Positions 13,651 to 62,845 of a stretch of DNA of 64,000 nt are shown piece by piece. The stretch's first letter is position 1. Every line of letters begins with the position of its first letter. Position numbers and translations under genes: made by a program. The notes beneath the pieces were generated by a model. That model searched no databases. It was not told the DNA's origin and was given only the letters and a program-made list of their open reading frames with translations. The DNA comes from Deltaproteobacteria bacterium CG_4_9_14_3_um_filter_63_12 (GTDB lineage: Bacteria; Myxococcota_A; Bradymonadia; UBA4248; UM-FILTER-63-12): positions 357-64,356 of the forward strand of contig PFUG01000212.1 in the NCBI GenBank assembly GCA_002789955.1. The letters are read 5' to 3'.

Positions 13651-13676
13651 GGCCCTACGCGCGATTGGAGTGCACC

Positions 13677-31171: not shown

Positions 31172-31194
31172 AGCTAGGTCGCTCGCTCCGCAGC

Positions 31195-31265: not shown

Positions 31266-31443
31266 CGACGCGAGCACACTCCAGATTGACACGCCATCGT
31301 GGACGGCGTGGTTCCTGTACCCACGCCCCGAACTTTGGTAACAAACGCGGGTCGTTTCACGGGGCTGCGGCCAATCCACGTGGGACTCGAGCTGGTCTGC
31401 CCCAGACGGCTCGCCACTGAACCCGAACAGAGCCTGAGCTGCG

Positions 31444-37793: not shown

Positions 37794-38027
37794 CCTTCGC
37801 GCTTGGGTGGCCGGGACCCAACCCTGTGAGCTTGCTTCCTACGATGTGGCAAACGGCTCACGGCGTTGGGCCTCGTGGTCTCAGGCGAAGGTTCTTGCTC
37901 GCCCAGAAAGCCCGTTGTTCAGGTCGACTTCGTGGTCAACAGCCGGGTCGGTTGAGGCCGGGCGGGGCGTGGCATACGTCGTGCACCGGGCCTCCGGCAA
38001 CGCGACCCCCGCGAAGGAGAACTCAAG

Positions 38028-38684
38028 ATGGTCAGTTTGTTCGAGCGTCGCTCGCTTCCCGGCACTGAGATGCTCCGGGCCGAACGACGAAGGGTCTGGC
38101 AGGGTCGTGCGATCGCCCTCGCCCTGCTCGTCGTCTCGTCCGCAATCACCACCTCGGCCGCCGCCCAAGGAACGCACTTCATTGCCGAGGGCACATTCGG
38201 CGTCAGCATGCCGCTCGGCATCGAGACCGACCAGGTTGGAATGTCCATCGGGGCGACCGCAGGGTTCGGCGGCAAAGTCCCTGGTTCCTTGCTGCGGATG
38301 TATGCCCTCGCTCAGTTCAACGGCTCCCAATTCAGCATCCTGCGCGAGGACCTCGCTCTCGAGCGAACCCTCATGGAGCTGTCGGGCGGTGGCCGTGTGC
38401 TCTTTCCATTGACCAGCAATCTGCGCCTCTACGCCGACGCTCTGCTGGGGCTGAGTTGGCTGACGAGCGAAGAGCGTTCGATGAGCGGACGACCAGTCTT
38501 TGTCGAGGACGTGGAGCCTCGGATGTCGTTCACGAGCGCTCTAGGGATACAATTTCGGCCGCTGATTTTCCTGTCTGTCGGCGCCAAGACGAGCTTCCTC
38601 TTTCTCTTGGACGACTCCTATCTGCCGGCCGAAGACATCAGCGGCTGTCTGAACATTCTCGGCAGCGTGACGCTCCATTTTTGA
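38028..38684 (+). CDS. Small outer-membrane beta-barrel protein
   Basis: AAGGAG RBS. Signal peptide ending AAAQG. Alternating amphipathic beta-strands. C-terminal residue is F, as in OMP sorting signals. Confidence 0.65.
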   Translation: MVSLFERRSLPGTEMLRAERRRVWQGRAIALALLVVSSAITTSAAAQGTHFIAEGTFGVSMPLGIETDQVGMSIGATAGFGGKVPGSLLRMYALAQFNGSQFSILREDLALERTLMELSGGGRVLFPLTSNLRLYADALLGLSWLTSEERSMSGRPVFVEDVEPRMSFTSALGIQFRPLIFLSVGAKTSFLFLLDDSYLPAEDISGCLNILGSVTLHF

Positions 38685-40685: not shown

Positions 40686-40723
40686 ACGACGGCATGCAAG
40701 AAGAGAAATCTGGAGTGAGTTCT

Positions 40724-44140: not shown

Positions 44141-44207
44141 GCGCGAACCGGTGTCGCAATCCAACGGGCTCGACGGGCTATGCCCGAGATTTGAAAGAGG
44201 TAATGAA

Positions 44208-45737
44208 ATGAGTGTCGTGCGCCTCCCCTTCATCCTGATAGTGCTCTCCATGCTGGCCATAGCATGCGGCCCGCCCAGTGGGCCGGAAAATCCCCTCGAC
44301 AAAGACGGGGGCAAAGAGTCCCAGCAACTCGTCCGCGAGGAAGCACTGAAGAAGTTCGAAGAGGGCATCGCCATCTTTCGTACGAACCCCGTGAAGGCAA
44401 AACAGCTCTTCGAGGAAGCCGTCGATGAGGATGAGACCTTTGGCGAAGCTTGGTACAACCTGGCGCTCGTCCAAGAGTCGGCGGGCGATATCCCGGGTGC
44501 AATCACCTCCTACGAGAACGCGATCAAGTCGCGCCCAGACATGGCTGAGCCCAACGTCAACCTCGGCGTCATTCTCCTGCAGAAAGGAGAGCGCGAGAAG
44601 GCGAAAGAGCTCTTCATGAAGGTCGTCAACGAGACCAATGGGATCGATCCTTTCAACGTCGAGGCAAACCTCGACCTGGGCATGATCTATCGGCTCGAGG
44701 GCGAGGAGATCGTCGCCAAAGACAACATCGGCAAAGACTTATCGACCCAAATCAACGAAGGCGAGGTCGTCGAGCGTGACATCGTCGTCAGCGACGAGGC
44801 CAAGGTGCGTTTCGCCGAAGCCGTGAAGAACGTTCGCCGAGCCCTCGCCGGTGACTCGAACAACATCACGAGCTACGAGAACCTCGCTGCGATCTATTAC
44901 GATCTCGACAGCCTCGAGGTCGCAACGTTGGTGTGCCAACAGGCTATTCAGAAGGAGATCGACCGCAATGCGGAGCTCGAGGCGCAGCTGGCGGCGAAGC
45001 AGATCACGCAGGCTGAGTTCAACGAGCACGAGATCACTGCCGTACAAATGAGCGCGGTCTACAACACGTTCGGGCTGGTTTGGATGGCTCGCGGTGAGGT
45101 CGCTCTGGCCTACGCGAACTTCAAGACCGCAATGGAGCTCGACCCTGTGTCCACAGAGGCGTTGTTCAACGTCGCTGGAATCGCCGTCAACGTGCAAGAT
45201 TACGCGATGGCCTACCAAACCTACGGTGATATTCTCAAGACCGAGCCCAACAACCGTGAGGCACGCTTGAGCCAAGCCGTTGCCGCACGTGGTTTGGACA
45301 ACCTCGCCGAGGCCGAGCAGGTCTACGATGCGCTGCTCAAGGACGACCCGACCTATTCCCCCGCGACCTTCAACAAGGCGGTTCTGTATCAGGAGTACCA
45401 CCGTGACTTGGTCAAGGCGAAAAGCATTTACGAGGAGTTCATCGCCATGCCGGCCGCAGCCAAGCAAGCCCCTGCATACGTCGCCGAAGCGCAACGCCGG
45501 GTGAAGCAGATCGAGGACATTTGGGAAGCGCAGAAGAAGGCAGAGGAAGAGCAGAAGAAGATCGAGAAAGAGATGAAAGAGCTCGAGGAGCTCCAGAAGC
45601 AGCGGGACAAGGAATACGAAGACGCGGAGAAAGCAGAGAAGGCGGCGGCAGAGGCCGCTGCGGGAGGAGGCGCTGCGAACGGCGAAACCCCTCCCGCTGA
45701 CGGAGAGAAAACACCGGAGACGCCCGCCACACCTTGA
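44208..45737 (+). CDS. TPR-repeat lipoprotein, 509 aa (AglT/GltE-like) with K/E-rich coiled-coil tail
   Basis: Lipobox LSMLAIAC. TPR repeats. C-terminal EEQKKIEKEMKELEELQKQRDKEYEDAEKAEK. AGAGG RBS. Confidence 0.85.
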   Translation: MSVVRLPFILIVLSMLAIACGPPSGPENPLDKDGGKESQQLVREEALKKFEEGIAIFRTNPVKAKQLFEEAVDEDETFGEAWYNLALVQESAGDIPGAITSYENAIKSRPDMAEPNVNLGVILLQKGEREKAKELFMKVVNETNGIDPFNVEANLDLGMIYRLEGEEIVAKDNIGKDLSTQINEGEVVERDIVVSDEAKVRFAEAVKNVRRALAGDSNNITSYENLAAIYYDLDSLEVATLVCQQAIQKEIDRNAELEAQLAAKQITQAEFNEHEITAVQMSAVYNTFGLVWMARGEVALAYANFKTAMELDPVSTEALFNVAGIAVNVQDYAMAYQTYGDILKTEPNNREARLSQAVAARGLDNLAEAEQVYDALLKDDPTYSPATFNKAVLYQEYHRDLVKAKSIYEEFIAMPAAAKQAPAYVAEAQRRVKQIEDIWEAQKKAEEEQKKIEKEMKELEELQKQRDKEYEDAEKAEKAAAEAAAGGGAANGETPPADGEKTPETPATP

Positions 45738-46155: not shown

Positions 46156-46328
46156 GCCAAGAAGTCAAAAGAATGTCGGACGAGGGAACTTTGTGAAAGG
46201 CTGTGTGTCGAAGATTCAGAACACGGACCCGGCAAGAAGTTCTCGAGTGAGAATGACCGACCTGGCAGGCGATAATGCCAGGCAGATGGGTCCATAGCCC
46301 AGACACCCAAAGGCCGGAGCAGGCAACG

Positions 46329-48503
46329 ATGGCAAGCACAACCCCACTGCGGTTCGACATTTACAAAGGGGACCAAATCATCCAGACGGTGACCCTCGAG
46401 CAGACCCCAATCAAGATTGGGAAACTGCCGAGTTCGCACCTGCGGATCGACGATCAGAAAGTCTCTCGAATCCATGCGGTAATTGAGCCGGCGAGGGATG
46501 AGGGTTTCCACATCATCGACCTTGGGAGTTCGAGCGGGACGTTCGTCAACGGTGCGAAGGTCAACAAGCAACGATTGAACTCTGGCGACGAGATTACGTT
46601 GGGTGACACCAAGATCGTCGTGGTGATTGAGTCCGAGTCTGAGGCGGAGTCAGAGGCGACCATGTTGTCTTCTCTGGACGCCTTGGGTGCGGCGGCGGCC
46701 CCCATGGCAGCCGCGCCAATGGCCCATGATTCCAACGAGGTGTTCGCCGGAGGCGGGATTCCTAACATGGGCCCCATGGCTGGCTTGCCTGCTGCCAATC
46801 CGGCGACCAATGCTGGATTCGCGATGCCAAGTGCGCCGCCGGCGTTTGGAGGAGCCCCCTCGGTTTTTGGACTTCCACAGCAAGGCTTCGGGCAGTCGGC
46901 CATGAATCCGCTCGCCGCAGGGGGATTCGGAGTCGCACAGGGACAGCTCAGTGCTTCCCCATTTGGGCTCCCGCAGCCGGCGCCCGCGCCAGCACCCGTC
47001 GTGATGGCGCCCGCTCCTCAACCGGTTCGTCAGCAAGCCAAACCCAAAGATAATTTTGAACGGCGCTTCCTTTCCGAGTCCTACAAGGGCGGAGCGGGTG
47101 CCCTCGAAGTGGCGTTGCTCTGGCGTGGGAACCTCTTCCACATCGACCAGTACAAGAAGGCCGCGAACATCACCATCGGCTCCAGTGCTGACGCAACCTA
47201 CGCGGTGGAAGCCGCTGCGGTTGGCCCGATTCGGCCCTTCGCTCTGCATGCAGGCGGCGAGTGGACCCTCTATTTTACCGACGAAATGGATGGCTTCATC
47301 CTCGTCGATCCGAAAAAGACCGGCGGCAAGGAGAAGCTCTCACTGAAAGAGGCTGCAGCCATCGGCTTGGCACAAAGGTCTCCCGATGGCTGGGCACTCC
47401 CGCTCAGCGGCTCGACTCGGGCGAAGATCAGTGTGGGGGACGTCGTGTTCCTCATCCACTACATCTCGCTGCCAGTCTTGAGCATGCCGCTCATCGCTCT
47501 GGGCGGCGCGGCTGGGGCGAGCCTAATCGTCTCACTCGTAACCTTCGGCGTCTCGTTCCTTCTGCACAGCGGATTCTGGGTGCTGGTCTCCTTCACGACG
47601 GATCGCGTCGATGCGCTGACTATCGACCAGCTGATGAGTGACTCTGCGTTCGCGGAGGCCCTCATCACCCCGGAGCAGGAAGAGGAAGAGGAGCCAGAGG
47701 AGGAGGAAGACAAGGAAGAAGAGGACGCACCTGAAGAAGACGAGGGCGCGCGCGCCGCTGAAGAAGAAGGCGACGTCGGCAAGCCAGACGAGACCGCACT
47801 GGAAGGGAAATTCGCCATCGAGGGCAACGACGACAACATGGCGTTGCGCAAGGCCTACAACACGCAAGTCGCGATGGGAACCGGCGTTCTGAGCGCGAGC
47901 GAAGAGATGGAGTCCCTTCTCGGCGGCGGTTTGGAAGCTGCAGGTTACGATGCCGTCAGCGCATGGGGTGAGTTCGATTCCACCGCAGCAGCCGGAAACA
48001 CTGCCGGTAACTACGGTCTCGGTATGAGTGGAGCGGGGCGTGGTGGTGGTGGCTCGAACGTCGGTGGCTTTGGCGTCGGTCGATTCGGCACCGCAGGACG
48101 AGGTGGTGGCGGCAGTGGTGGTCGGAACTATGGCAGCGCGGCAGCCTCTCTCGGTGACAAAGCTGTCGGAGCGCCGAAACTCAAGCCAGGACGCCCTGAT
48201 GTCTCAGGCTCGCTCGACAAGCGAATCATTCGAAAGGTTGTCAACCAACACAAACGAGAGATCAAGGCCTGTTACGAGAAAGAGCTCGCGAAGAAGAAAG
48301 GTCTGTTCGGAAAGGTGGTCGTCAAGTGGACCATTGATCAGTCAGGGAACGTCCCGTCAGCGGTTGTGGTCTCGACGACCATGAACAACAAAGAAGTCGA
48401 GAAGTGTCTCTCTAGCGCTATCTCCTACTGGCGATTCCCTGCACCGAGGGGAGGAGGGTTGGTCATCGTCTCCTATCCGTTCGTCTTCGAGGTCGGGAAC
48501 TAG
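46329..48503 (+). CDS. FHA-domain protein with low-complexity linker, TM helix, polyacidic stretch, Gly-rich region and C-terminal TonB_C-like domain (AgmV/GltG-like)
   Basis: FHA motif GSSSGTFVNG..L..GD preceded by IGKLPSSHLRIDDQKVSRIHAVIE. TM helix LIALGGAAGASLIVSLVTFGVSFLL. EQEEEEEPEEEEDKEEEDAPEEDE. The C-terminal VVKWTIDQSGNV..ISYWRFPAP has a TonB-C/TolA-like fold pattern. Confidence 0.85.
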   Translation: MASTTPLRFDIYKGDQIIQTVTLEQTPIKIGKLPSSHLRIDDQKVSRIHAVIEPARDEGFHIIDLGSSSGTFVNGAKVNKQRLNSGDEITLGDTKIVVVIESESEAESEATMLSSLDALGAAAAPMAAAPMAHDSNEVFAGGGIPNMGPMAGLPAANPATNAGFAMPSAPPAFGGAPSVFGLPQQGFGQSAMNPLAAGGFGVAQGQLSASPFGLPQPAPAPAPVVMAPAPQPVRQQAKPKDNFERRFLSESYKGGAGALEVALLWRGNLFHIDQYKKAANITIGSSADATYAVEAAAVGPIRPFALHAGGEWTLYFTDEMDGFILVDPKKTGGKEKLSLKEAAAIGLAQRSPDGWALPLSGSTRAKISVGDVVFLIHYISLPVLSMPLIALGGAAGASLIVSLVTFGVSFLLHSGFWVLVSFTTDRVDALTIDQLMSDSAFAEALITPEQEEEEEPEEEEDKEEEDAPEEDEGARAAEEEGDVGKPDETALEGKFAIEGNDDNMALRKAYNTQVAMGTGVLSASEEMESLLGGGLEAAGYDAVSAWGEFDSTAAAGNTAGNYGLGMSGAGRGGGGSNVGGFGVGRFGTAGRGGGGSGGRNYGSAAASLGDKAVGAPKLKPGRPDVSGSLDKRIIRKVVNQHKREIKACYEKELAKKKGLFGKVVVKWTIDQSGNVPSAVVVSTTMNNKEVEKCLSSAISYWRFPAPRGGGLVIVSYPFVFEVGN

Positions 48504-49841: not shown

Positions 49842-50318
49842 CTGCTTTGGTCTACATTTCGGCCGACTTGCAGTTTGCGGCAATGCACACCCAACGCGGT
49901 TGTGGCAGTGCTTTGCACCGTGATATAAGCGCAGTGTTCGAGCCGAAGTCCGCCTCAGTGGTGGCGTAGAACCGACGGGAGATGGGCTGATCGCCTGTGT
50001 TCCCCCGGTTTGTGTGTGATGCGCGGTGGTTCCCCCTCTTGTGCCCATCGCAGGTGCTTGGAAGGCACGAGCGGTGTTCTTTGTCCGGCCACGGACGCAG
50101 GTCGAGCTTTTGCGACCGTCGGCATGGGAGGCGTTCTGTTGGTCATCCGTTGTGAGCAAGTTTAGTCTAGTGGCTCGCCGCGGAGTGCAAAGAGTTTTTT
50201 CCTAGCCGTCGTCAGTGTTGTTCACCGTTTCGGTGAGTCGAAGCTGTGAACAACCGAGAACATCCCGATGGGCCAACCCGAGAGGTTGCCCGCAATCATA
50301 GTCTTCTAGAGGCATGGC

Positions 50319-53300
50319 ATGAGCGACCACCACGAGACGGATTCGACCCCCACCCCTGACGCCGAGAACCCCGAGGAGAGCGCCCTCGTTGGGGCCGTCT
50401 TGGACGCAGAGGACGCGGCCGAGGCGCTCGATGAGCACGCCGGAGATGAGTTGGAGGGATCTGGCGAGGCTGCGGCGTCCGAAGAGGCCTCACCGGCTGA
50501 TGGTGAGGCCCCGGATGCTGATGGCGACATCGACGTCGACGAGCAAGAGCCGAGCGAAGACGCGGCCGATGAAGCTGAGCCTTCTGACGAGGTTGTGGAG
50601 GTCTCGTGGGAAGACAAGGCGGAGGCCCTGATTGCAGGCGCTGCCGCTGCTTCCTCTCCCGAAGAGAGTTTGTCGAAGTACGTTGCGGCGATCTTGCTCG
50701 CCGATCAGAACGCTCCTGGGGACGGACGAATCGCAGAGACTTGGGGCGATGCGCTGCAAAGAATCCCTGGGTTGGCGCGCGAGTTGTGGGCGCGGCTCAG
50801 CGGCAGAGTGACGTCCGAAGTGGATGTTTGGGAGCAGATTTCCATCGCCCACCAGGTCAACTCGACGGACGCCGATGGAGACGAGGCGCTCGCCATTTCA
50901 GAGGCTTGGGGTTGGGTTCAGGTGCTTCGCTCTGGAGAGGTCGAGGCAGGGAAGGCTCGTTTGCAGGCTTTCGCCGAAGGCGACGCCAACGGCTATTCCG
51001 CAGCGATTCTCGAGGCCGTGATTTCGGCTGAGAGTGGCAACTGGAGGAAGGTCGAAAGTGAGATCAAGGATCGGCTGGCCGCGACCGGTCTCGACGGAGA
51101 GCCGCTGGCCGCCGAGGTTGCGTTACGACTTGCTGATGTGAGCATGGGGCAAGCGGCTAGGGACCGTGCGGTCGAGGTCCTTCGACGCGCACAGCGCAGC
51201 GATCCCGAGCACAGCAGCCTTCGCAACCGGCTGACGGTGCTCTATCGAGACACCGCAAAGTGGAACGCCTACGTCGATCTCCTGAAAGAGGCAGTGGCGC
51301 GCACCCCTGATCCCGAAGAGCAGGTCAGCATCTACTTCGAGATGATCCGCATCTACACGGATCAGATGCACCTCGAAGCGATGGCGGTGAAAGCCTATGA
51401 GTCACTGTTGCTGATCGAGCCGACGAACGAGAGGGCGATCGGTGCGCTCGCCGCGGCTTATGAGTCCTCGCGTCGTTGGCCGGACTTGGTCTCATTGCTG
51501 CGTGGGCAAGCGGACGCGGCCAAATCTGCTGCGCGCCGTGTGGCGCTGAACTACCGCATCGCCGTGGTGTACTTGGACAACCTCTCCCGTCAAGTCGACG
51601 CCATCAAAGCGTTCGAAATGGTCTTGGAGGACTCGCCCTACCACGAAGAGACGATCGCACACCTCAAAGACCTCTACGGTCGGCGAAGGGAGTGGGAGAA
51701 GCTCATTGATGTTCACAAGGCGGAGATCAGCCGCCTCGCCGATCCATTTGAGCAAGCCGAGCGGCTGAAGGAGGTCGCGGAGATTGCAGACAAGCTGCGG
51801 CAGCCATCTATCACCGCGTTGATTTGGAGCGAAGTGCTCGAGCGTTCTCCGAAGGACGAGGCAGCTCTTTCGGCCCTCGAAGGGCTTTACGAGAGAGAGA
51901 AAGATTGGCCGAAGCTGGCGGACATCTGCGAGCGAAAGGCCACCCTCGAGGAGGATCCGGCGGAACAGCTCAAACTCTGGACGAAGCTCGGCGGGCTGTA
52001 TGGAAGCAGCATCCGTGACTCGGAGGGAGCGATCCGGGCTTGGCGCGCTGTTTTGATGTTGGAGCCTGGTCACACCAAGGCCTCCGATTCTTTGCGCAAG
52101 CTCCTCATCGACACGAAGAAGTGGGACGATCTCGAGACGTTCTACGCTGAGCAGGATGCCGGGGCCGAGCTGGTCCGCGTCCTGGAAACCCTCGCCAACA
52201 CCTCGAAAGAGGACGCCGATGTCGTCGAGCTGCGCTTCAGAGCCGCTCGCGTCTGGCGGGATGATCTGGGGAACCCCGATCGCGCCGTGGCTTCGCTCGA
52301 GAAGGTCTTCGAGACCGACGCTGCGAATGCACGAGCCGCAGCCGAGTTGGCCCCCCATTACGAGTCGATCGCCGATCACGCCAAGTTGGTCGCGATGTTG
52401 GAGATCCAGCACGCGGCGGAAGATGGCCTGGAACGCCGCGTCGAGCTGGCTCTCAAGATCGCGACGCTGAACGAGAAGTCCCTCAACGATTTGGCGGCAA
52501 GCTACCGTTGGCTCGCGTCCGTCATCGAGCAGAAGCCTGACCACGACGCCGCCTACGACGCCTTCGAGCGCGTCGGCATCCAGCTCGACAAGGCCGCTGA
52601 CGTCGTCAAACGCTACCGCGATGCGAGCAGCAAGGTCGAGACCGAAGTCGAGCGGCAGGAGTTGACGTTCAGGATGGGCATCATTTTGGCCAACCAGCTC
52701 GGCAAAGTCGACGCAGCCCTCGCTATGTTCGAGTCCATTCTCGAGCAGGAACCCGACAACCTCAAAGCTCTCGGCGCGCTGGAGCGGATCCTCGAACAGA
52801 CAGGGCGCTTCGACGAGCTGATCCAGGTCAACGAGCGTCGGCTAGGATTGGCGACCACGCCTGCGGAAGAGGCCGAGATCCTGCTCTCAGGGGCGCGGAT
52901 TCACGAGCAGCAGAGAGGGGACAAGGTCACCGCGATCGAATCGTACGAACGCGTGCGGGAGTTGGCCCCGAAGAATCAAGCGGCCTTGATCGAGTTGCAT
53001 CGCCTGTACAAGGAGCGAGGCGACTGGGAGGCGATGGCCAACGCCATCCGTGCGCGCCTCGCGTTGATGGCCGAGGCGGCCCCTCGGCCAACAAAGAGGG
53101 TGGAGCACCGCAGCCCCGTCCAGTTGGACGAGGACGGTCATCTCGACGCACCAGCTGGAGCCGACCTCGACGAAGACGCCGACGGGAACGTCTTTGTTGT
53201 TCGCGTCGAGGAGGTCATCGACGAGACGGCAGAGCCACAGCTCGAGGCGAGCGTGGCCATTCCGCTGTGGATGGAGTTGGGCAGCGTGGTCCAACACGAG

Positions 53301-56300
53301 CTCGCCGAGTACGACGAGGCCATCGGCTGCTATCGCCGGATCATGGAAACGGACATTGAGAACGAGGCAGCGCAAGAAGCCTTGGAGACCCTTCTCGGCG
53401 AAGGGATCGAGGCTGGGCGAGTCGCTACGATTCTCGAGCCCGTCTACGCGTTCCAAGCGGACTTCGACGCGCTGGTCAAGGTGCTCTCGATCCAGTTGGA
53501 GCATAACACCGTCAAGGACCAGCAGATCGTCTTGTGGACCCGAGTCGCGGGCTTGCAGCGCGATGAACTCGGCGATCAAGAATCGGCCTTCGAAGCGTAT
53601 GGGAAGGCTCTCGAGCTCTTACCCGCCGACGACGAGGTCTTCGGCCAGCTTTCGAGCGTCGCTGCGGGCTTGGACGACATTCCGCGACTGGCAGCGAAGT
53701 TGGAGAGCATCACAGAGTCTATCGAGGACGAGCGGCTCCGCACGTCGTATGAGTTGCGGCTCGCTGGGATCTACGAGACCAGCCTCGACGACATCGAACG
53801 CTCGAGGGACTTTGCCCGCTCCGCTCTGCAGCGTGGTGGGAAGGACCCGGCGGTTCTGGAGTCCCTCGAAGCTCTACACACACGCACCGAGTCTTGGGAC
53901 GATTTGCTCGCGGTTTTGTCGAAGCAGAAGGGCCGAGTGGCAGAGGAGCCTGAACGGGTGCTCGCCCTCAACCTTCGGATTGCCTCGGTCAAAGAGGAGC
54001 TGCTTCAGGATCCGGAAGGCGCCATCGAGGTGTACCTCGAGGTCCTGAACGCCGATGGCGCCAACGAGCAGGCGCTGGCAGCCCTCGACCGGCTCTACGC
54101 CGACCTCGAGCGCTGGGACGAGGCCGCTTCGAACTTGGGCCGAAGACTCGAGCTCCAAGAAACCGAAGCGGGGCGCGACGCGGTGCATTGCCAACTCGCG
54201 AAGGTCCTGGATCGCCACCTCGGTGAGTCGGAGCGAGCGATTGAGATCTACACCGAGGTCTTGGGACGCGACTCACAGAACGCGACGGCGATCTTGGATC
54301 TCGAGGCGATGCTCGAGACGGCAGATCCCATCCCCGCCGAGTCGATCATGGAGCTGCTGCTGCCGCTCTACGACGCGGCTGGAGACTGGAGGAAGCGCGC
54401 CTGGGTCAATGAGAAGATGCTGCGGGTCGTCGACGATACACAGCGCCGGGTCGCGCTGTTGGCGGAGATCGCCAACCTGCACGAGAGCCAAGGGCAGGAG
54501 TACGAAGAGGCCTTTATCGCCTACTCTCGTGCGCACACGGAAGACCCGACCGACGAGAACACTCTCGAGCAGCTCCGCCGTTATGCGGAGGCGTTGGACG
54601 TCTGGCGCGAGTTGGTGGAGGTGATGCAGACCGCAGCAGAAACCATCGCCGATGGCACTCAGGCTAAAGAAGCGCAGATTCGCATCGCTTCGATCTACCG
54701 CGACAATCTCGCCGATCTTGAAGGCGCGACGACAGCTTACGAGCGTGCCAGCGAGTACGACCCAGAGGACACCAGCATTCTCGATTCGCTCGAGACGATC
54801 TACCGAGAGCGTTCCGCCTGGGAACCCCTCACCGCGGTTCTCGCCAAGAAGGCAGTGCGCTGCGAAGATCTCACGGAGAAGAAGGAGTACCTCTTCCAGG
54901 CTGCCATTCTCTGTGAAGAGATGCTCGAGCGGATGGACCGTGCCACCGAGATGTACCAAGAGGTCTTGAGCCTCGATTCCGAGGATCGGACCGCCATCGA
55001 CAGCCTCGAGCGACTCTATCTGAGCACCGAGCGCTGGAACGACTTGATGTCGATCTACAACATCAAGATCGAAGCGGCGCAGACGCCCGAGCAACAGCTC
55101 GAGCTCTACTACATCGTTGGGGCCTTGCAGGAGCGCGAGCTCGACGACAACTACGGTGCCATCGAGACCTACCGCAAGGTTTTGGACATCAACTCTGACG
55201 ACCCCCACGGTCTCGAGGCGCTTGACCGGCTGTATACGCTGGTCGAGGACTGGATGAATCTCCTCGAGATCCTGGAGCGAGAAGAGGCGACGGCCAGCGA
55301 TCCAGATGCCAAGCTCGAGCTGCGCTTCCGCCAAGGCGACGTGTGGAGACTCAATCTCAACGAGTCGCTGCGCGCGATCGAGGTGTACCGCAGTGTTCTC
55401 GAGGTGCACTCGGCGCATGAGGCGAGCATCGCCGCTCTCGAAGCGGTCATCGCCAGCGGAGAGAACGGGGTCGATGCCGCGAAGGTGCTCGAGCCAGTCT
55501 ACAAATCGGCGGCTGAGTGGGAGAAGTTGGTCGCGGTCTATGAGGTGATGTTCGAGCAGTCCGAGGACGAGCAAGGCCGAATCGAGCTGTTGAGCACGAT
55601 CGCCATGATTCGTGAGGACATGCAGGGCGATGCTGCGGCTGCATTCGACGTCTGGATTCGGGCGCTCCACCAAGATCCTCGAGACGCGACGGCTTGGGAG
55701 ACCTTGCAGCGCATCGCCGCTGTGATGGACCTCTGGGACACTCTCGTTTCGAAGGGAGGAGAGATCCTCGCCAAGACCGAGGAGAGCGATGCGGCAAGCA
55801 TCGTCGCCAGTCACTTGGCCCGTATCTACGAGGAGAATATTGGCTCGCCGACCGACGCCATCTCGATGTGGGGCCGTGTACTCGAGGTCGAGCCCGCGGA
55901 GCCCACGGCGATCGCCGCTCTCGATGGTCTCTACGAAAGGCAAGCCATGTGGCCCCAGCTGGCCGAGACACTGTCCCGAGAGATCGAGCTGGCCACCCGC
56001 GAGGAGGACATTCTCAGATTCCGTCTGCGCCTGGGGACCCTTTACGAGAACTTCTTGGAGGACCTGAGCGAAGCGATCAGTTGCTACAACGAGATGCTGA
56101 TGCTGCAGGCCGGAAACGCGGATGCCGTCGCCTCTTTGGAGCGCATGTTCGCAGCCGGTCAAGAACAGCTCGCCGTTGGTGGGATCTTGGAGCCGTTCTA
56201 CCGAGACACCGAGCAATGGGACAACTTGGTCGGGATCGCGTTGGCCCTATTGGAGCATTTTGAGACCGCCACGGAGCGCTATCAGAAGCTCCTGGACATC

Positions 56301-59300
56301 GCTGAGATCTACCTCGGACCGCTATCGAACGCAGCCAATGCCCTCTTCGTCTATGGTCGTGCTCTCGTCGAACGCCCAGGGGACGAATTCGCTCTCACTC
56401 GCTTGAGCGAATTGGCGGAAATCACACAGTCTTGGGAGGAGGCAGTGGACTTCCTCGCCGCCGCTTTGGACGCGTCCGAAGAGCCGACGGTCCAAAGGGA
56501 ACTGTTGTGGCGCATGGCGACAGCCTACAACGACGAGATCGGCAACTTCGAGCAAGCAGAGCACGCCTATTTGCGAGTCTTCGAGGTCGACCCCGAAGCG
56601 CTCGACGCCATGCAGGCCCTCGATAAGCTCTACCTCGAGCAGTCCCGGTGGGACGATCTGGTCAACGTCTTGCGTCACGAGATCGCCCTTTCTCAAGGCG
56701 ATCACGAGAAGATCGAGCTCTACCTGCGGTTGGGTCAGATCTATGAGGACATGATCCAGAACTCAGCCGCTGCGGTGCAATCTTTCCGCCTGGCCCTCGA
56801 GCTCGAGCCCTCACAATCGGAGGCGCTCGCTGCCCTCGAACGAATCCACATGCAAAGTGAGGAGTGGGAGCTCCTCTACGCCGTCTACAGTCAGCAATCG
56901 ACCATCGCCGACAGCGAAGAGGTGCGTTCGGAGATCTGGGCCAAGATGGCCAACCTCGCCGCCGAGGTCCTCGACCGCCGCAACGACGCCATCGAGCTCT
57001 GGTTCCAAGTGCTCGACGCCCGAGGGGCAGATCTCAACGCCCTCCAGAACCTCGAGCGGCTCTTCGAGTACGATAAGCGCTGGCCTGACATGACCGACGT
57101 CATCGAGCGCCAGGTGCCATTGGTTCAGACTGCCGAAGCGCAGCTGGAGCTCTTCCGCAAGCTCGGCAGAATTTGGAGCGGGCCTCTCGAGAACGAGGAG
57201 AGAGCCCTCGAGTATTGGCGTCGCGCCATGGACGTCCACCAAGAGGACCTCGAGACCCTCTGCGCCATCAAGCAGATCGATGAGAACCTCGGCGACTATG
57301 AAGACCTGGTGGACATCATTCGCCGCATCGTCGCGCTCGGCGTTTTGGAGCACGAGGTTCAGCTCGCCCATTACGTGCAGCTCGGCGAGATCTTGAGCCA
57401 GGTCCTCATTCGCTCGCAGGAGGCGATCGACACTTGGATTCAGGTCCTCCAGCTCAATCCCGCCCACCTCCAGGCGCTGGTCGCGTTGGAGCAACTCTAT
57501 GTCGACGAAGCTCGATGGGAGGAGGCTGTCGACGTCCTCGACCGCAAGGCGGACGTCGTCGAAGACTCGAACGAGGCGCTCAACATTCGCATGCAGATCG
57601 CCGAAATCTGGGAGAACCAGGTTGGCAATGCCGAGCTCGCAGCGGCGGCCTACGACAACGTCCTGGATATGGATCCAGCCAACAACGACGCGTTCCTCCG
57701 CCTCGAGACTTTGCACACCAACGGTGAGAACTGGCAACAGCTGCTTGGCCTCTACGTCACACGCGCCGAGGTGATCGAGGAGCCGAAGACCCGCCTCGAG
57801 GTGCTGCGGCGGGCCGCCAGCATCGCCGAAGAGCGCCTCGACCAACCCGAGATGGCCTTTGTCGTGCTGCAGACGGCGCTGGCCGATCACTGGCGCGATT
57901 CGACCATCGCCAATGAGCTCGAGCGGCTCGCTGACGTGACGCGAAACTGGCGAGAGCTGGTCGGGATCTACGAGCAGATCATCGAGACGGTGAAGGACCC
58001 TTCCGAAGCCCTCGAGCTCCACAACAACGTCGCCCGTTGGTACTTCCACAAGCTCAACGACAACGAGAAGTCCTGGCAACACTTCCAGTTCGTGCTCTCG
58101 CTCGACCCCAACAACCTCAACGCGCTTGCGGCTCTCTCGAAGATCTACGAGCGGCTGGGCAGCTGGCAAGAGCTGGTCAACGTCCTGGTTCGTCGCGCCG
58201 AGTTGACCCAAGAGGTCGAAGACAAGATCGAGCTCTACACGCAGATCGCCGTCGTCTGGGAGGACAACCTCTCAAACGAAGCGCAAGCCATCGAGGCGTT
58301 CCGACAGGTTCTCGCGCTCGATGAAGGCAACCTCAACGCCTTGCGTCAGCTCGAGCGCATCTTCCAAGGAACTCAACAGTGGGAGGAGCTCGTCGACGTG
58401 CTGGAGACACTCTGCCAGGTCGTCTACGAACCTGCGGACGTCGTCAAGATGCGCTATCGCGTCGGCGAGATCTGGGAGACCTGCCTCGAGGTCGACCAGA
58501 AGGCGATCGATTCTTACCGGCAAGTCCTCACCATCGAGGAGACCCATGCGCCCGCTCTCGATGCGCTGGAGCGACTCTTCACGCGACTCCAGCAGTGGGC
58601 GGACCTCATCGGTGTCTACGAGGCGCAGCTGACCTCTGCGGAGTCTGGCGACGAGCAGATCGCGCTCTACCTCAAGATGGCAACCGTCTATGAGGAAGAG
58701 TTCGGTGACGTCGAGAACTCGATCGCCTGCATGCAGCGCATCACGATGGTCGATCCGGCGAACTTAATGGCCATCCAGACCCTCGAGCGTCTCTATCGCG
58801 ACAACGGACGCTGGCCGGACCTGATCGACGCACTCACGACCCACATTAGCATCGTCTACGACCGAAAGGAGCAGATCGAGCTGTACCGACAGCTGGGTGA
58901 GGTCTTCCGAGACCATCTCCAAGATGTCTACCGGGCCATCGAGAGCTTCCGGAATATCCTCGAAATCGACCCCAATCATTCGCTCGCCTTGGGGGCGTTG
59001 GCCGACCTCTACTACAACAGCGCCGACTGGCAGACCTGCATCGAGACCCTCAACCGCCTCGTCGCGGTCACCTTCGAAGTCGCTGACGGCGTCGAGCTCC
59101 AATATCGGATCGGTAAGATCTTCGAGGAGCATCTGGCGGAGTACGACCAGGCAGAAGAGCGCTTCCAGATCGCCCTCGATCTCGACGGCTCGTTCATGCC
59201 CGCCATCGATGCCCTGCAGCAACTCTACGAACGCCGCGAGGACTTCATCGGCGTGATCCGGATCCTGAAGCAGAAGGTCGAGCACACGGTCGACCTCGAG

Positions 59301-61622
59301 GAGAAGGCCGATCTTCTCTGCCTGATCGGACAGATCTACGACCTGCGAATGAACGACGCGATCAACGCCGTCGACTACTACGAGAAGACCCTGCAGCTCA
59401 GCCCCTCGAACATCTACGCCGCACGCCCGTTGGCGGAAAAGTTCATCCGGGAGCAGCGCTGGGCACGCGCCGAGACGTTGCTCGAGACCCTGATCCACAA
59501 GATCGGCTACAGTCGCGACGTCGAGGATCTCTACATGCTCCACTACTGGCTCGGCTTGGCCAGCCAGGAGTTGGGACAGCAAGAGAAGTCGCTCACCCAC
59601 TTCCGTGAGTCCTACGAGCTCAACCAGGCCTATCTCCCCACCCTGCTCGGGTTGGGGCGGCAGCTCTACAACTGCCATGACTATGAGCGTGCGTACAAGA
59701 TGTTCCAGACCATCCTGGTTCAGTACGCCGAGGAACTCTCTGGCGAGCAGCTGATCCAGGTCTACTTCGACTCCGCGCAGATCAAGCACGCGACCGGAGA
59801 CATGGTTCAGTCTCAGCACCTCTTCGAGAAGGTCTTGGAGATCGATCCAACCCACGAGAAGACTCTGGGCGCCATGATCGAGCTCTGCGAAGACGCAGAG
59901 AACTGGGAGTACGTCGTCTACTACAAACGAGCGAGGCTCTCGGTCGCCGGTGACGTCGCCGAGAAGTTCGCCGAGCTCGCCGAGATGGCGGAGATCTACC
60001 AACGTCAAATGGGAGACCTCGAGAAGGCCATCTCGTGCTTCCGTGAGGCGATGGAGATCGAGCCCGACTCCAAGTTCGTGATGCTGAAGCTCCTCGACAT
60101 CTACACGAACTCGAAACAGTGGACAGAGGCCATCACCCTCCTCGACCGGCTCTGCGAGCTCGAGTCCGGGCCAGAGCGCTTGGCCAAGTTCAACTACACC
60201 ATCGGCGTCATCTACCGAGACGAGTTGAACCAGGACCTGCAAGCCGTCACCTACTTCAACCGTACGTTGGACGCGAACATCAACGAGCTCAAGGCCTTCG
60301 AGGCCATCGACCGCATCCTCACTGCCATGAAGGATTGGCGAGAGCTCGAGCGCAACTACCGCAAGATGATCAAGCGTGTCTACGACCTCGACGAAGGCCA
60401 GTTCGACGACACCAAGTTCCTGCTCTGGTACGGCTTGGCCGAGATCTATCGCACCCGGCTCACCGAGTGGGACAGCGCCATCAGCGCCTTCCAACAGGCC
60501 AGCTCACTGCGGCCCAAGGATCCCAGAATGCACCGCATCCTGGCCGATCTCTTCGTGCGCAGTGGAGACCAAGACGATGCCGCCATCGGGGAGTTCAAAA
60601 CCCTGATCAACATGCCACCGGATCCCAGTGACCCCTACGCACGTGGCGGCAATCTGCACGAGCGAAACGCAGAGTTCTACCACTCGCTTTTCAAGCTCTA
60701 CCTCAAGACCAAGCGCTACGATGAGGCTTGGTGCATCTGCAACGTGATGTGCTACCTGCGCATCGCCACCGACGAGGAGAAGCAGTTCAACGAGCGCTAC
60801 CTCGGGCCATCCCTGGTCCAGGCTCAAGGTCGCCTGACGCCCGATACGTGGAAGATGGTCTACCATCCCGACGAGAATCTGCGCATTGGCAACGTTCTCA
60901 ACGTGATCCAGGCCTACTGCCGCGATCTCTTCGCCTACGACCTGAAGAAGACGTGGTCCCTCAAGAAGAAGGACGAGCTCGATCAGAACGCGGACTTCCT
61001 CTTCTGCAAGATGTACCGCTACCTCGCCCAGGTCATCGGCGTCGTTCCGGCCCCGAAGCTCTTCCTGAAACGCGACCAGGCCCTCGGCATGATCAACGGC
61101 AACATCGATCCACCTGGCTTCATCGTCGGGGCGGACATGATGCAGGGACGTGGGCAGCGCGAGCTGGGCTTCATCATCGCTCGCCAGTTGGCTCTGGCCA
61201 CACCCATCCACTACTTGGGCGGACTGCGCCTGCCAACCGAGAACCTCAGGTTCCTGGTTATGGGCGCGATCCAGGCCGCCACCAACGCGGCGACCGCGGA
61301 TAGCAATCTCGATGCGGTCATCAAAGCGATTCACAAGATGCCACCCCCTGTGAAGGTGGACTTGGGCAAGATCCTCAAGCCCATCATCGAAGGGACGGTC
61401 GAAGTGAATATGTCGCGCTGGCTCAAGGCCATCGACAACACCTCGAACCGCGTTGGGCTCCTGCTCTGCGGCGATGTCGAGGTCGCCATGAGTGCCATCA
61501 AGAACGACCCAACTCCGATCTCGAAGCTCACCATCCCCGAGAAGGAGGCTGAGCTGCTCCAATTCGCGATCAGTGAAGAGTTCTTCCAAGTGCGAGCACG
61601 GCTCGGACTCTCCATCGCCTGA
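50319..61622 (+). CDS. Giant cytoplasmic TPR-repeat protein, 3767 aa (AgmK/GltI-like)
   Basis: Uninterrupted 11,304-bp ORF with uniform GC3 bias. N-terminal about 100-aa polyacidic disordered region, then about 90 TPR-like helical hairpins (recurrent AW..LG.LY, A..Y..VL..DP.N). AGAGG RBS. No signal peptide or TM. Confidence 0.9.
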   Translation: MSDHHETDSTPTPDAENPEESALVGAVLDAEDAAEALDEHAGDELEGSGEAAASEEASPADGEAPDADGDIDVDEQEPSEDAADEAEPSDEVVEVSWEDKAEALIAGAAAASSPEESLSKYVAAILLADQNAPGDGRIAETWGDALQRIPGLARELWARLSGRVTSEVDVWEQISIAHQVNSTDADGDEALAISEAWGWVQVLRSGEVEAGKARLQAFAEGDANGYSAAILEAVISAESGNWRKVESEIKDRLAATGLDGEPLAAEVALRLADVSMGQAARDRAVEVLRRAQRSDPEHSSLRNRLTVLYRDTAKWNAYVDLLKEAVARTPDPEEQVSIYFEMIRIYTDQMHLEAMAVKAYESLLLIEPTNERAIGALAAAYESSRRWPDLVSLLRGQADAAKSAARRVALNYRIAVVYLDNLSRQVDAIKAFEMVLEDSPYHEETIAHLKDLYGRRREWEKLIDVHKAEISRLADPFEQAERLKEVAEIADKLRQPSITALIWSEVLERSPKDEAALSALEGLYEREKDWPKLADICERKATLEEDPAEQLKLWTKLGGLYGSSIRDSEGAIRAWRAVLMLEPGHTKASDSLRKLLIDTKKWDDLETFYAEQDAGAELVRVLETLANTSKEDADVVELRFRAARVWRDDLGNPDRAVASLEKVFETDAANARAAAELAPHYESIADHAKLVAMLEIQHAAEDGLERRVELALKIATLNEKSLNDLAASYRWLASVIEQKPDHDAAYDAFERVGIQLDKAADVVKRYRDASSKVETEVERQELTFRMGIILANQLGKVDAALAMFESILEQEPDNLKALGALERILEQTGRFDELIQVNERRLGLATTPAEEAEILLSGARIHEQQRGDKVTAIESYERVRELAPKNQAALIELHRLYKERGDWEAMANAIRARLALMAEAAPRPTKRVEHRSPVQLDEDGHLDAPAGADLDEDADGNVFVVRVEEVIDETAEPQLEASVAIPLWMELGSVVQHELAEYDEAIGCYRRIMETDIENEAAQEALETLLGEGIEAGRVATILEPVYAFQADFDALVKVLSIQLEHNTVKDQQIVLWTRVAGLQRDELGDQESAFEAYGKALELLPADDEVFGQLSSVAAGLDDIPRLAAKLESITESIEDERLRTSYELRLAGIYETSLDDIERSRDFARSALQRGGKDPAVLESLEALHTRTESWDDLLAVLSKQKGRVAEEPERVLALNLRIASVKEELLQDPEGAIEVYLEVLNADGANEQALAALDRLYADLERWDEAASNLGRRLELQETEAGRDAVHCQLAKVLDRHLGESERAIEIYTEVLGRDSQNATAILDLEAMLETADPIPAESIMELLLPLYDAAGDWRKRAWVNEKMLRVVDDTQRRVALLAEIANLHESQGQEYEEAFIAYSRAHTEDPTDENTLEQLRRYAEALDVWRELVEVMQTAAETIADGTQAKEAQIRIASIYRDNLADLEGATTAYERASEYDPEDTSILDSLETIYRERSAWEPLTAVLAKKAVRCEDLTEKKEYLFQAAILCEEMLERMDRATEMYQEVLSLDSEDRTAIDSLERLYLSTERWNDLMSIYNIKIEAAQTPEQQLELYYIVGALQERELDDNYGAIETYRKVLDINSDDPHGLEALDRLYTLVEDWMNLLEILEREEATASDPDAKLELRFRQGDVWRLNLNESLRAIEVYRSVLEVHSAHEASIAALEAVIASGENGVDAAKVLEPVYKSAAEWEKLVAVYEVMFEQSEDEQGRIELLSTIAMIREDMQGDAAAAFDVWIRALHQDPRDATAWETLQRIAAVMDLWDTLVSKGGEILAKTEESDAASIVASHLARIYEENIGSPTDAISMWGRVLEVEPAEPTAIAALDGLYERQAMWPQLAETLSREIELATREEDILRFRLRLGTLYENFLEDLSEAISCYNEMLMLQAGNADAVASLERMFAAGQEQLAVGGILEPFYRDTEQWDNLVGIALALLEHFETATERYQKLLDIAEIYLGPLSNAANALFVYGRALVERPGDEFALTRLSELAEITQSWEEAVDFLAAALDASEEPTVQRELLWRMATAYNDEIGNFEQAEHAYLRVFEVDPEALDAMQALDKLYLEQSRWDDLVNVLRHEIALSQGDHEKIELYLRLGQIYEDMIQNSAAAVQSFRLALELEPSQSEALAALERIHMQSEEWELLYAVYSQQSTIADSEEVRSEIWAKMANLAAEVLDRRNDAIELWFQVLDARGADLNALQNLERLFEYDKRWPDMTDVIERQVPLVQTAEAQLELFRKLGRIWSGPLENEERALEYWRRAMDVHQEDLETLCAIKQIDENLGDYEDLVDIIRRIVALGVLEHEVQLAHYVQLGEILSQVLIRSQEAIDTWIQVLQLNPAHLQALVALEQLYVDEARWEEAVDVLDRKADVVEDSNEALNIRMQIAEIWENQVGNAELAAAAYDNVLDMDPANNDAFLRLETLHTNGENWQQLLGLYVTRAEVIEEPKTRLEVLRRAASIAEERLDQPEMAFVVLQTALADHWRDSTIANELERLADVTRNWRELVGIYEQIIETVKDPSEALELHNNVARWYFHKLNDNEKSWQHFQFVLSLDPNNLNALAALSKIYERLGSWQELVNVLVRRAELTQEVEDKIELYTQIAVVWEDNLSNEAQAIEAFRQVLALDEGNLNALRQLERIFQGTQQWEELVDVLETLCQVVYEPADVVKMRYRVGEIWETCLEVDQKAIDSYRQVLTIEETHAPALDALERLFTRLQQWADLIGVYEAQLTSAESGDEQIALYLKMATVYEEEFGDVENSIACMQRITMVDPANLMAIQTLERLYRDNGRWPDLIDALTTHISIVYDRKEQIELYRQLGEVFRDHLQDVYRAIESFRNILEIDPNHSLALGALADLYYNSADWQTCIETLNRLVAVTFEVADGVELQYRIGKIFEEHLAEYDQAEERFQIALDLDGSFMPAIDALQQLYERREDFIGVIRILKQKVEHTVDLEEKADLLCLIGQIYDLRMNDAINAVDYYEKTLQLSPSNIYAARPLAEKFIREQRWARAETLLETLIHKIGYSRDVEDLYMLHYWLGLASQELGQQEKSLTHFRESYELNQAYLPTLLGLGRQLYNCHDYERAYKMFQTILVQYAEELSGEQLIQVYFDSAQIKHATGDMVQSQHLFEKVLEIDPTHEKTLGAMIELCEDAENWEYVVYYKRARLSVAGDVAEKFAELAEMAEIYQRQMGDLEKAISCFREAMEIEPDSKFVMLKLLDIYTNSKQWTEAITLLDRLCELESGPERLAKFNYTIGVIYRDELNQDLQAVTYFNRTLDANINELKAFEAIDRILTAMKDWRELERNYRKMIKRVYDLDEGQFDDTKFLLWYGLAEIYRTRLTEWDSAISAFQQASSLRPKDPRMHRILADLFVRSGDQDDAAIGEFKTLINMPPDPSDPYARGGNLHERNAEFYHSLFKLYLKTKRYDEAWCICNVMCYLRIATDEEKQFNERYLGPSLVQAQGRLTPDTWKMVYHPDENLRIGNVLNVIQAYCRDLFAYDLKKTWSLKKKDELDQNADFLFCKMYRYLAQVIGVVPAPKLFLKRDQALGMINGNIDPPGFIVGADMMQGRGQRELGFIIARQLALATPIHYLGGLRLPTENLRFLVMGAIQAATNAATADSNLDAVIKAIHKMPPPVKVDLGKILKPIIEGTVEVNMSRWLKAIDNTSNRVGLLLCGDVEVAMSAIKNDPTPISKLTIPEKEAELLQFAISEEFFQVRARLGLSIA

Positions 61623-61658
61623 TCCGAAAGCGACGGCCAAATTCAAACCACCACGCCG

Positions 61659-61942: not shown

Positions 61943-62845
61943 ATGGCAGGAACCCTCTTCGTCGTCGCGACACCCCTCGGAAACCTTGAGGACATCACCC
62001 TGCGCGCACGCAGGATCCTCCAGGACGTGCTTTGGATCGCCTGCGAAGACACCCGACATTCTGGGCGCTTCCTGCGAGGACTCGGCGCCAACGCCAGCCT
62101 CCTCAGCTACCACGCCCACAACGAAGCCAGCCGCGAGGCGAAGATCCTCGGGATCCTGCAAAACGGCGAAGACGTCGCGCTGATCGCGGACGCTGGCACT
62201 CCCTGCATCTCAGATCCCGGCGAGCGCCTCGTGCGCGCCTGCCGCGCCGCCGGTCTCACCGTCGTCCCAATCCCTGGGCCGAGCGCCGTCATCACCGCCC
62301 TCTCAGGCAGCGGGTTGCCCTCTGGCCGCTTTCATTTCGAAGGCTTTTTGCCTCGAGAAGACAAGCATCGGCGCGCGCGGCTCGAAGCACTCAACTCGAG
62401 CGAGACGACTTTTGTCCTTTATGAGTCGCCCAAGAGAATCCACAAGCTGCTCGAAGAGCTCGTCGAAATCTGCGGCGAATCGCGCCAGGTTTGCGTCGCT
62501 CGTGAGCTGACCAAGATGCACGAAGAGTTCTTGAACGCCACCGCTCGCGAGCTGCTAGACCAAATCAGCGAGCGCAACGCGCTCAAGGGCGAGTTCACCG
62601 TGATCGTCGAGGCCTCCGAACCGAAGCAGGAAGACGCCGACGACGTGCGCGTCGCCGCCCTCGTGCAGACCTTGCGCAACGAGGGGCTGAGCGATCGCAG
62701 CATTCGCGGGGTCATCATGGAGACCTTCGAATTGAGCCGAAACGCCGCCTACGCCTACGTGCTCGACCTCGCGGACGGCCCCGCGGACGGCCCCGCGGAC
62801 GGCCCCACGGACGGGCTCGCGGACGGCCCCGCGGACGAAAGCTGA
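61943..62845 (+). CDS. rsmI: 16S rRNA (cytidine1402-2'-O)-methyltransferase with C-terminal (ADGP)n repeat tail
   Basis: LFVVATPLGNLEDIT, EDTRHSG, DAGTPCISDPG, VPIPGPSA and YESPKR match RsmI. GAGGTGAGG RBS. Confidence 0.9.
   Translation: MAGTLFVVATPLGNLEDITLRARRILQDVLWIACEDTRHSGRFLRGLGANASLLSYHAHNEASREAKILGILQNGEDVALIADAGTPCISDPGERLVRACRAAGLTVVPIPGPSAVITALSGSGLPSGRFHFEGFLPREDKHRRARLEALNSSETTFVLYESPKRIHKLLEELVEICGESRQVCVARELTKMHEEFLNATARELLDQISERNALKGEFTVIVEASEPKQEDADDVRVAALVQTLRNEGLSDRSIRGVIMETFELSRNAAYAYVLDLADGPADGPADGPTDGLADGPADES
62771..62836 (+). repeat. 12-bp tandem repeat (GCGGACGGCCCC)x5 encoding ADGP repeats at the rsmI 3' end
   Basis: Read directly from the sequence. Encodes LADGPADGPADGPTDGLADGPADES. 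Confidence 0.85.

Follow-up and report, generated by a model that had tools for sequence, protein, structure and literature searches.

A gene of 3767 codons raises the question of what a bacterium builds at such length, and with which partners the product works. The gene in question lies on the forward strand of contig PFUG01000212.1 of Deltaproteobacteria bacterium CG_4_9_14_3_um_filter_63_12 (assembly GCA_002789955.1; Bradymonadia in the GTDB lineage), within the 64,000 nucleotides from contig position 357 to 64,356 that constitute the window of this analysis; coordinates are counted from the first letter of the window. An earlier sequence-only reading had taken its product for a giant composed throughout of tetratricopeptide repeats (TPR). 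That the gene is real has stood; its family, the glt-like gene cluster to which it belongs and a separate C-terminal domain had been missed. The giant is probably a member of the GltI (AgmK) family, the cytoplasmic TPR scaffold of the Agl-Glt gliding machinery of Myxococcota, given that models of gliding proteins match genes upstream of it, that giants collinear with it occur in other genomes, and that a distant family member directly adjoins gltJ.

The Giant Gene and Its Reading Frame

As had been claimed from the sequence, a single open reading frame (ORF) occupies 50319-61622 of the forward strand; it begins with ATG, and its translation runs through 3767 codons with zero internal stops. 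At the three codon positions the G+C content (GC) is 0.66/0.37/0.80, a profile typical of genuine genes read in this frame. An identical copy of the 353-amino-acid protein encoded directly upstream occurs on 15 metagenome contigs that were assembled independently, and on the three of these that were examined the giant is 3767 amino acids long, 3762 amino acids long and, where it is cut at the contig end, 1506 amino acids long. Strain variants of the giant differ by in-frame insertions or deletions only, and the protein aligns collinearly with many full-length orthologues over ~3500-3800 residues.

TPR families are the only Pfam matches along the protein. Neither sequence nor hydropathy reveals a signal peptide or a membrane segment, the highest 19-residue Kyte-Doolittle mean being 1.22, below transmembrane grade. 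The description of the giant as a real, non-enzymatic TPR protein, predicted to be cytoplasmic, has proved right.

A Solenoid of 72-Residue Modules

The giant consists of four parts, namely an acidic tail, ~180 helical residues, an array of modules and a non-TPR C-terminal domain (Table 1). It is not the all-TPR protein that it had been called, as its last 305 residues form a separate domain, the region behind the tail lies off the repeat and an acidic insertion of 60 residues separates two modules. The D/E-rich and probably disordered N-terminus that had been described is borne out by the composition of the first 100 residues, where 38 D/E stand against 1 K/R. Among the strain variants, all amino-acid changes in the first 840 residues, together with two in-frame indels, fall within residues 1-95. 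Since an acidic tail is present in only three distinct lineages among ~38 giants, it is a lineage-specific, fast-changing and probably disordered appendage, and no feature of the family.

Self-comparison of the giant yields a single sharp autocorrelation peak at lag 72, and a repeat hidden Markov model (HMM) built from the giant itself finds 41 tandem domains in residues 278-3462, mostly of exactly 72 residues. Five of the modules are lengthened by insertions of 13-19 residues, and the stretch 3082-3156 probably represents a single degenerate copy, which would make 42. An AlphaFold2 (AF2) model was obtained for six modules (residues 2577-3008) from an alignment of 11 orthologous segments. With a predicted local distance difference test score (pLDDT) of 94.6, it shows 24 helices in an unbroken run, four per module, so that each 72-residue module corresponds to two TPR-like hairpins. 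On this model the 41-42 modules are predicted to form a continuous alpha-solenoid, as the AlphaFold check suggested with the earlier reading was meant to establish; the estimate of about 90 hairpins comes near the mark, the actual figure being 41-42 four-helix modules, or ~82-84 hairpins. The best PDB matches of the segment are the TPR superhelices of OGT, SPINDLY and the designed CTPR proteins (Foldseek probability 1.0). The fold of the repeat region is the same in all of them; however, those arrays have 8-16 repeats of 34 residues against ~84 hairpins in 72-residue double units in the giant, and the curvature differs, to judge by global TM-scores of 0.25-0.33.

The register of the array is kept as well. 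The segment 2577-3008 ends 759 residues from the C-terminus in the giant of the window and 744-779 residues from it in 14 other giants, and its offset is almost unchanged in the genome loci described below. This constancy of the C-terminal offset implies that the repeats are orthologous by position throughout the family.

A C-Terminal Domain as Family Signature

The non-TPR C-terminal domain was searched exhaustively with HMMER, using residues 3430-3767 as the query against 1.84 billion cluster representatives. The search returned 1920 representatives at E<=1e-3, 161 of them at E<=1e-30; in all matches listed the domain is the extreme C-terminus of the protein, and dozens of the matching proteins are 3300-4227 amino acids long. 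Conserved motifs are YDxAWC, RELAF, RPEHYL, LSxW, NRVGLLLCGD and YFxLRxxLG. The AF2 model of the domain (pLDDT 92.3; predicted TM-score, pTM, 0.91) is globular and mainly helical, with a single three-stranded sheet. No match was found in Pfam, NCBIfam or the PDB sequences, and none with Foldseek at E<=0.001, where the best was MATCAP (E 0.04, TM 0.21). A word-indexed protein database, queried with the domain alone and as a profile, returned short fragments only and no named GltI, a search that also failed to retrieve giants which the collection does contain; names obtained by cluster look-up were uninformative. The 305-residue domain is the sequence signature of this family.

The Glt-Like Cluster Upstream

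Eight genes upstream of the giant share its strand, and the giant is the last gene of the cluster they form. The order is OmpA-like lipoprotein, barrel-like protein, gltC-, gltD-, gltE-, gltF- and gltG-like genes, TPR lipoprotein and giant, and four of the upstream genes are matched by NCBIfam gliding models (Table 1). The GltG-like protein matches gliding_GltG at E 4.5e-108 (362 bits; cut-off 650) and, with 111.6 bits, exceeds the cut-off of 40 of myxo_SS_tail, the model of the AgmX/PglI tail. Pfam places an FHA domain at its N-terminus and TonB_C at its C-terminus, and this architecture of FHA plus TonB-like domain has been published for GltG/PglI (PMC3169522). The 1155-amino-acid protein in the position of GltD has no specific NCBIfam model match; GltD of Myxococcus xanthus has 1191 amino acids (PMC3169522). 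The cluster thus contains the core trio of GltD-like and GltE-like TPR proteins and a GltG-like FHA and TonB-like protein. No family match was obtained for the 218-amino-acid protein near the head of the cluster, which appears barrel-like and is placed where GltA/B-type barrels sit in glt/nfs clusters.

Related Giants and Conserved Gene Order

Genomes were scanned for the motif [NSD]R[VLI]G[LM]L[LM]CGD with subsequent confirmation by tblastn, and 33 loci were returned. Their informative labels are Bradymonadaceae, Bradymonadales, Bradymonadia, "Myxococcales", Myxococcota, Haliangiales, Kofleriaceae and Anaeromyxobacter; the remaining loci bear broad labels only (such as Proteobacteria, delta proteobacterium or "bacterium"), bar one Victivallales, and Myxococcus is not among the 33. 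Giants of 3300-4200 amino acids are collinear with the protein of the window at 29-42% identity over ~3500-3800 residues, while the other TPR proteins of the window give no match in the same comparison. These relatives from uncultured Myxococcota and Bradymonadia (P0006, P0105, P0012, P0077, L001, L003 and others), annotated merely as "tetratricopeptide repeat protein", are collinear over their full length, and in the closest of them the C-terminal domain is 53-72% identical to that of the window. They share the small upstream TPR gene and the downstream TP_methylase gene; they differ in mostly lacking the acidic tail, in an N-terminal length that varies by several modules and, in some, in not adjoining glt genes.

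At two loci, L035 and L040, where the giants have 4146 and 4042 amino acids, the order is that of the window: gltC-, gltD-, gltE-, gltF- and gltG-like genes, a TPR gene for 295-346 amino acids, and the giant. The GltD-sized protein of the window is collinear with proteins of 1125 and 1099 amino acids in the same position there. L039 shows the gltG-like gene, the TPR gene and the giant. The order gltC-D-E-F-G, small TPR gene, giant thus recurs where the giants are only 29-35% identical. The linkage of giant and glt genes is frequent, not obligatory.

The strongest tie to named gliding genes comes from a more distant locus, L027, which encodes a giant of 3623 amino acids with the same C-terminal domain (26.6% identity over 1723 collinear residues, E 1e-171). 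The gene directly after it matches gliding_GltJ at 1.5e-64 and carries an MJ0042 zinc finger and the AgmX/PglI tail. Two loci labelled Anaeromyxobacter, L032 and L033, have domain-bearing open frames of only 750-1660 amino acids with no GltJ downstream, and were left out of the chain that links the giant to GltI. Such short frames may mark a paralogous subfamily of lesser length, or they may be parts of giants that in-frame stops have interrupted.

Two other neighbours recur. In L035, L037/L038, L039 and L040 the gene immediately before the giant encodes a TPR protein of 291-346 amino acids, and in L035 and L037/L038 it resembles the 353-amino-acid protein of the window by tblastn. The small upstream TPR protein does not belong to the Glt proteins named so far and may be an overlooked partner in the machine. 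In 18 other loci the giant is directly followed by a TP_methylase gene (e.g., L001 11029-11856 and L040 22148-22996).

Comparison with GltI of M. xanthus

GltI of M. xanthus (AgmK, MXAN_4863; UniProt Q1D2V1, accession from PMC3447774) has 3822 amino acids and a substantial, largely helical non-TPR C-terminal domain (PMC11761067); other GltI homologues have been published at 4074-4104 amino acids. The giant of the window, at 3767 amino acids, is of like size, is likewise devoid of signal peptide and membrane segment, and is built of TPR nearly throughout before ending in a non-TPR domain, which presumably corresponds to the C-terminal domain of M. xanthus GltI. Both genes come from Myxococcota, and both lie downstream of gltD-E-F-G on the same strand, the G1 cluster of M. 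xanthus being ordered gltD-E-F-G-H-(two doubtful ORFs)-gltI-gltJ (PMC3169522). There are differences as well. In M. xanthus gltI is followed by gltJ, whereas the giant of the window is followed by the TP_methylase gene, although the family member at L027 keeps gltJ. Between gltG and the giant the window has the 353-amino-acid TPR lipoprotein and no gltH-like barrel as in M. xanthus. The gltC-like and barrel-like genes belong to the one cluster of the window, whereas their counterparts in M. xanthus lie in the separate G2 cluster, and unlike M. xanthus GltI the giant has an added acidic N-terminal tail.

Several points weigh against identifying the giant as a gliding scaffold. Every NCBIfam gliding match falls below its equivalog cut-off, which marks the genes as homologues from a distant lineage and not as assured functional equivalents. 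The genes gltJ, aglRQS and gltK/cglB are absent from the window, in which nothing GltJ-like was found beyond the tail domain shared with GltG and no MotA/TolQ/ExbB-type motor gene was found among the main ORFs scanned against Pfam; the missing motor genes say little, because the motor genes of M. xanthus also lie at a separate locus (PMC3169522). A TP_methylase gene takes the place of gltJ behind the giant, and the giants at L034, L036 and L037 stand apart from glt genes. The tie to MXAN_4863 is indirect, by way of L027 and gene context, and FHA binding and the scaffold role are proposals drawn from published structure predictions.

Alternative Explanations

Other explanations differ widely in how much they can account for. 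The sequence-only reading had feared false read-through, that is, an assembly or sequencing artefact fusing several genes. No point in support of this was found, and the 15 independent contigs carrying the locus, the calls of 3767 and 3762 amino acids, the in-frame strain indels, the collinear full-length orthologues and the codon-position GC leave it next to no probability; as far as the sequence data reach, it is refuted. Scarcely more credible is the proposal that the C-terminal domain is a zincin-like metallopeptidase, which would make the giant an enzyme whose very long arm recruits substrate. The top Foldseek matches are metallopeptidases (MATCAP, followed by M32 carboxypeptidase and ZMPSTE24 at E about 1), and the three-stranded sheet followed by a long helix in the model resembles zincins; yet TM-scores are ~0.2, nothing is found at E<=0.001 or by sequence in Pfam or the PDB, HExxH is missing, and the invariant residues of the family are Y, D, W, C, W, D, R, L and G. 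Because no invariant His or Glu exists in the family, the domain is not read as an enzyme, and with TM-scores so low the zincin proposal was dropped. A TPR scaffold of generic kind, which adjoins the glt genes by chance and has nothing to do with them, would explain the giants at L034, L036 and L037, and TPR proteins do serve many processes. It is nevertheless very unlikely in view of the gene order from gltC to giant that recurs at 29-35% giant identity, and of the L027 member that adjoins gltJ.

The main rival to gliding is a Glt/Nfs-type envelope machine for non-gliding use, such as surface polymer transport (like that of Nfs in building the spore coat) or predation, with the giant as its scaffold. 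The sub-cut-off gliding matches would fit such a machine, as would a window without motor genes, adhesin genes and gltJ, and M. xanthus itself possesses several paralogous clusters of differing output (PMC3169522). However, Nfs, the non-motility paralogue of M. xanthus, lacks GltI, J and K (PMC3169522), so that a GltI-type giant points to the motility version, and the Bradymonadales, a group with related giants, are thought to use surface motility in predation (PMC8460266). We consider the non-gliding machine unlikely, if less so than chance adjacency, and a GltI-family gliding scaffold remains the probable identity of the giant.

Leader, Antisense Strand and Flanking Genes

Table 1. Coordinates of the giant gene, its parts and its neighbours in the window, with the small TPR genes of related loci in the last row
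Feature	Coordinates	Strand	Evidence
Kinase genes	10782-12740, 16911-18467, 18876-20654, 25692-27347	+	
Kinase gene	33384-36014	-	
OmpA-C-domain (peptidoglycan-binding) lipoprotein, cluster head	36657-37793	+	Pfam OmpA, NCBIfam OmpA-family
Predicted outer-membrane beta-barrel-like protein, 218 aa	38028-38684	+	signal peptide, C-terminal ...TLHF
GltC-like secreted TPR protein	38937-40685	+	gliding_GltC E 1.4e-92, profile positions 117-619 of 622
Secreted TPR protein, 1155 aa, GltD/AgmU position and size	40673-44140	+	Pfam TPR
GltE-like TPR lipoprotein	44205-45737	+	gliding_GltE E 1.5e-26; lipoprotein signal
GltF/CglF-like small secreted protein, 104 aa	45841-46155	+	gliding_CglF E 5.8e-14
GltG-like protein: cytoplasmic FHA, membrane segment, AgmX/PglI (TonB-like) C-terminal domain	46275-48503	+	NCBIfam, Pfam
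TPR lipoprotein adjoining the giant, 353 aa	48780-49841	+	Pfam TPR; lipoprotein-type signal ...FSAC|D
Intergenic leader, 477 nt, no recognised element	49842-50318	+	gap, GC, scans
Giant gene (3767 aa + stop)	50319-61622	+	ORF/translation, codon-position GC, collinear homologues, independent assemblies
Acidic low-complexity N-terminal tail, residues 1-95	50319-50603	+	composition, strain variability
N-terminal region off the 72-residue module, residues 96-277	50604-51149	+	uncovered by self-derived repeat HMM
Tandem 72-residue double-TPR modules, residues 278-3462	51150-60704	+	autocorrelation, repeat HMM, AF2, Foldseek, Pfam
Acidic non-repeat insertion between modules, 60 residues, residues 933-992	53115-53294	+	gap in repeat-HMM coverage
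Conserved non-TPR C-terminal domain, 305 aa, residues 3463-3767	60705-61619	+	HMMER family, motifs, AF2
TP_methylase-family gene, downstream neighbour	61943-62845	+	Pfam
Upstream TPR genes of related loci	L035 8858-9745; L037 9041-9916; L039 1525-2445; L040 8842-9882		

The gap in front of the giant had been described as an AT-richer and unusually long leader, possibly with its own promoter or a regulatory RNA, behind a terminator-like hairpin that ends the upstream gene. Its length is indeed exceptional, as it is the longest gap in the cluster (the others measure 64-320 nucleotides, and the same gap in relatives 84-255), but it is only marginally AT-richer, with a GC of 0.579 against 0.612 in the giant gene and 0.564 in the upstream gene. 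Neither a scan for sigma-70-like sites nor a search for the sigma-54 consensus found a site in the leader, Rfam gave no match even at E<=1, and fold stability is not unusual. Behind the upstream stop there is no T-run and the fold has z = +0.59 relative to shuffled sequence, while the sole terminator-like match in the region, at 50055-50073, is at chance level; neither the promoter or regulatory RNA nor the hairpin could thus be upheld. Strain polymorphism is highest in the leader, where two of three strain variants have 12 and 22 substitutions, all at 49976-50306, against 0-3 substitutions in 3.2 kb of flanking coding DNA, which argues against a tightly constrained RNA element. The differences of the strain variants L042 and L043 are concentrated in 49976-50603, in the distal leader and the acidic tail, and include in-frame indels of 1 and 4 codons.

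On the antisense strand, the long ORFs at 51492-52544, 54273-56216, 56811-58211, 58764-60494 and 60504-61646 exist and are spurious, as had been said; that every antisense frame carries them is wrong. They are confined to the one frame in which the first position of the antisense codons lies opposite the third position of the sense codons, where 17 stops occur as against 113 and 138 in the other two. When the order of the giant's own codons is shuffled, the mean longest antisense open run is 710 codons, compared with 657 observed, and since shuffled codons give equally long runs these ORFs are a by-product of codon usage.

Some further observations concern the surroundings of the giant and of its relatives. 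Within 40 kb upstream of the FHA-bearing cluster lie four Ser/Thr kinase genes (one fused to TPR) and a PrkA-type kinase gene, and the FHA domain of the nearby GltG-like protein is of the phosphothreonine-binding type. A protein of 1096 amino acids encoded at 13611-16901 contains a CehA/McbA-family metallohydrolase domain (NCBIfam 1.1e-26) and has no Pfam match, and 27609-33390 holds genes of glucan metabolism, namely a GlgC-like nucleotidyltransferase, a GH57 enzyme and a CBM9-containing protein. A 201-amino-acid ORF at 37807-38412 overlaps the barrel-like gene in another frame; it is Arg/Ser/Pro-rich, has no family match and is probably spurious. The closest genomic relative of the giant, L001 (CAXXSX010000001.1, GC 0.51), with a domain 72% identical and a shared TP_methylase neighbour, is the locus labelled "Victivallales bacterium". 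This label is probably a binning or classification error, as no other returned locus is labelled outside the Myxococcota/Proteobacteria range. The small TPR gene, of 290-350 amino acids, adjoins the giant in most lineages examined, even in L037, which has no other glt genes, and the TP_methylase gene, which looks like a housekeeping-type gene, keeps its place though the giants are only ~30% identical. Downstream of the gltI-gltJ pair of L027, the gene at 14058-15182 belongs to the uncharacterised TIGR04552 family (E 2e-94). In L032 (5522-10510), L033 (7958-10210) and L021-L031, from metagenome-assembled genomes labelled Haliangiales, Kofleriaceae and Anaeromyxobacter, the domain ends open frames of only 750-1750 amino acids with no GltJ downstream, and in L032 an ORF in the same frame stops right before the open frame.

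Implications for the Gliding Machinery

If the giant is a GltI, its mode of action may be pictured after the AlphaFold model of the M. xanthus protein (PMC11761067), by which the soluble solenoid, roughly 0.1 micrometre in length, would serve as a cytoplasmic scaffold. Along it the FHA domain of GltG, a TonB-like protein of the inner membrane, would find several places to bind, and a putative partner of this kind is encoded two genes upstream of the giant. One giant could thereby gather several inner-membrane motor/transducer units into a single focal adhesion complex, as the same model suggests (PMC11761067), while its C-terminal domain might dock a further partner.

Beyond this we put forward, tentatively and as the less probable view, that the GltI family acts as a molecular ruler whose module number and register are selected to fix the spacing or the stoichiometry of motor units. 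The idea rests on the strict 72-residue unit and on repeats that are positionally orthologous across lineages 27-46% identical; that a conserved module count fits a role in spacing or stoichiometry is speculation. If the ruler were true, the C-terminal domain and the small TPR lipoprotein would be unrecognised parts of the machine. With regard to the history of the cluster, the ancestral layout may have been closer to the contiguous gltC-D-E-F-G-(TPR)-gltI arrangement found outside the Myxococcia than to the division into G1 and G2 seen in M. xanthus.

These data do not overturn the current understanding of gliding. They allow a giant gene to be named as a GltI-family gliding scaffold, at the strength stated above, and its neighbours to be treated as a single, contiguous glt-like cluster of an uncultured bacterium of Myxococcota type. 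What is modestly new is a C-terminal domain so far in no catalogue, a 72-residue module strict in length and constant in register, and the recurrent TPR and TP_methylase neighbours. The domain, with ~1900 representatives and no Pfam or NCBIfam model, provides the GltI family with a sequence signature, and the modules of conserved count and register provide a comparative result, both of which the work on M. xanthus lacks; the recurrent neighbours, the small TPR gene and the TP_methylase gene, could guide experiments on gliding.

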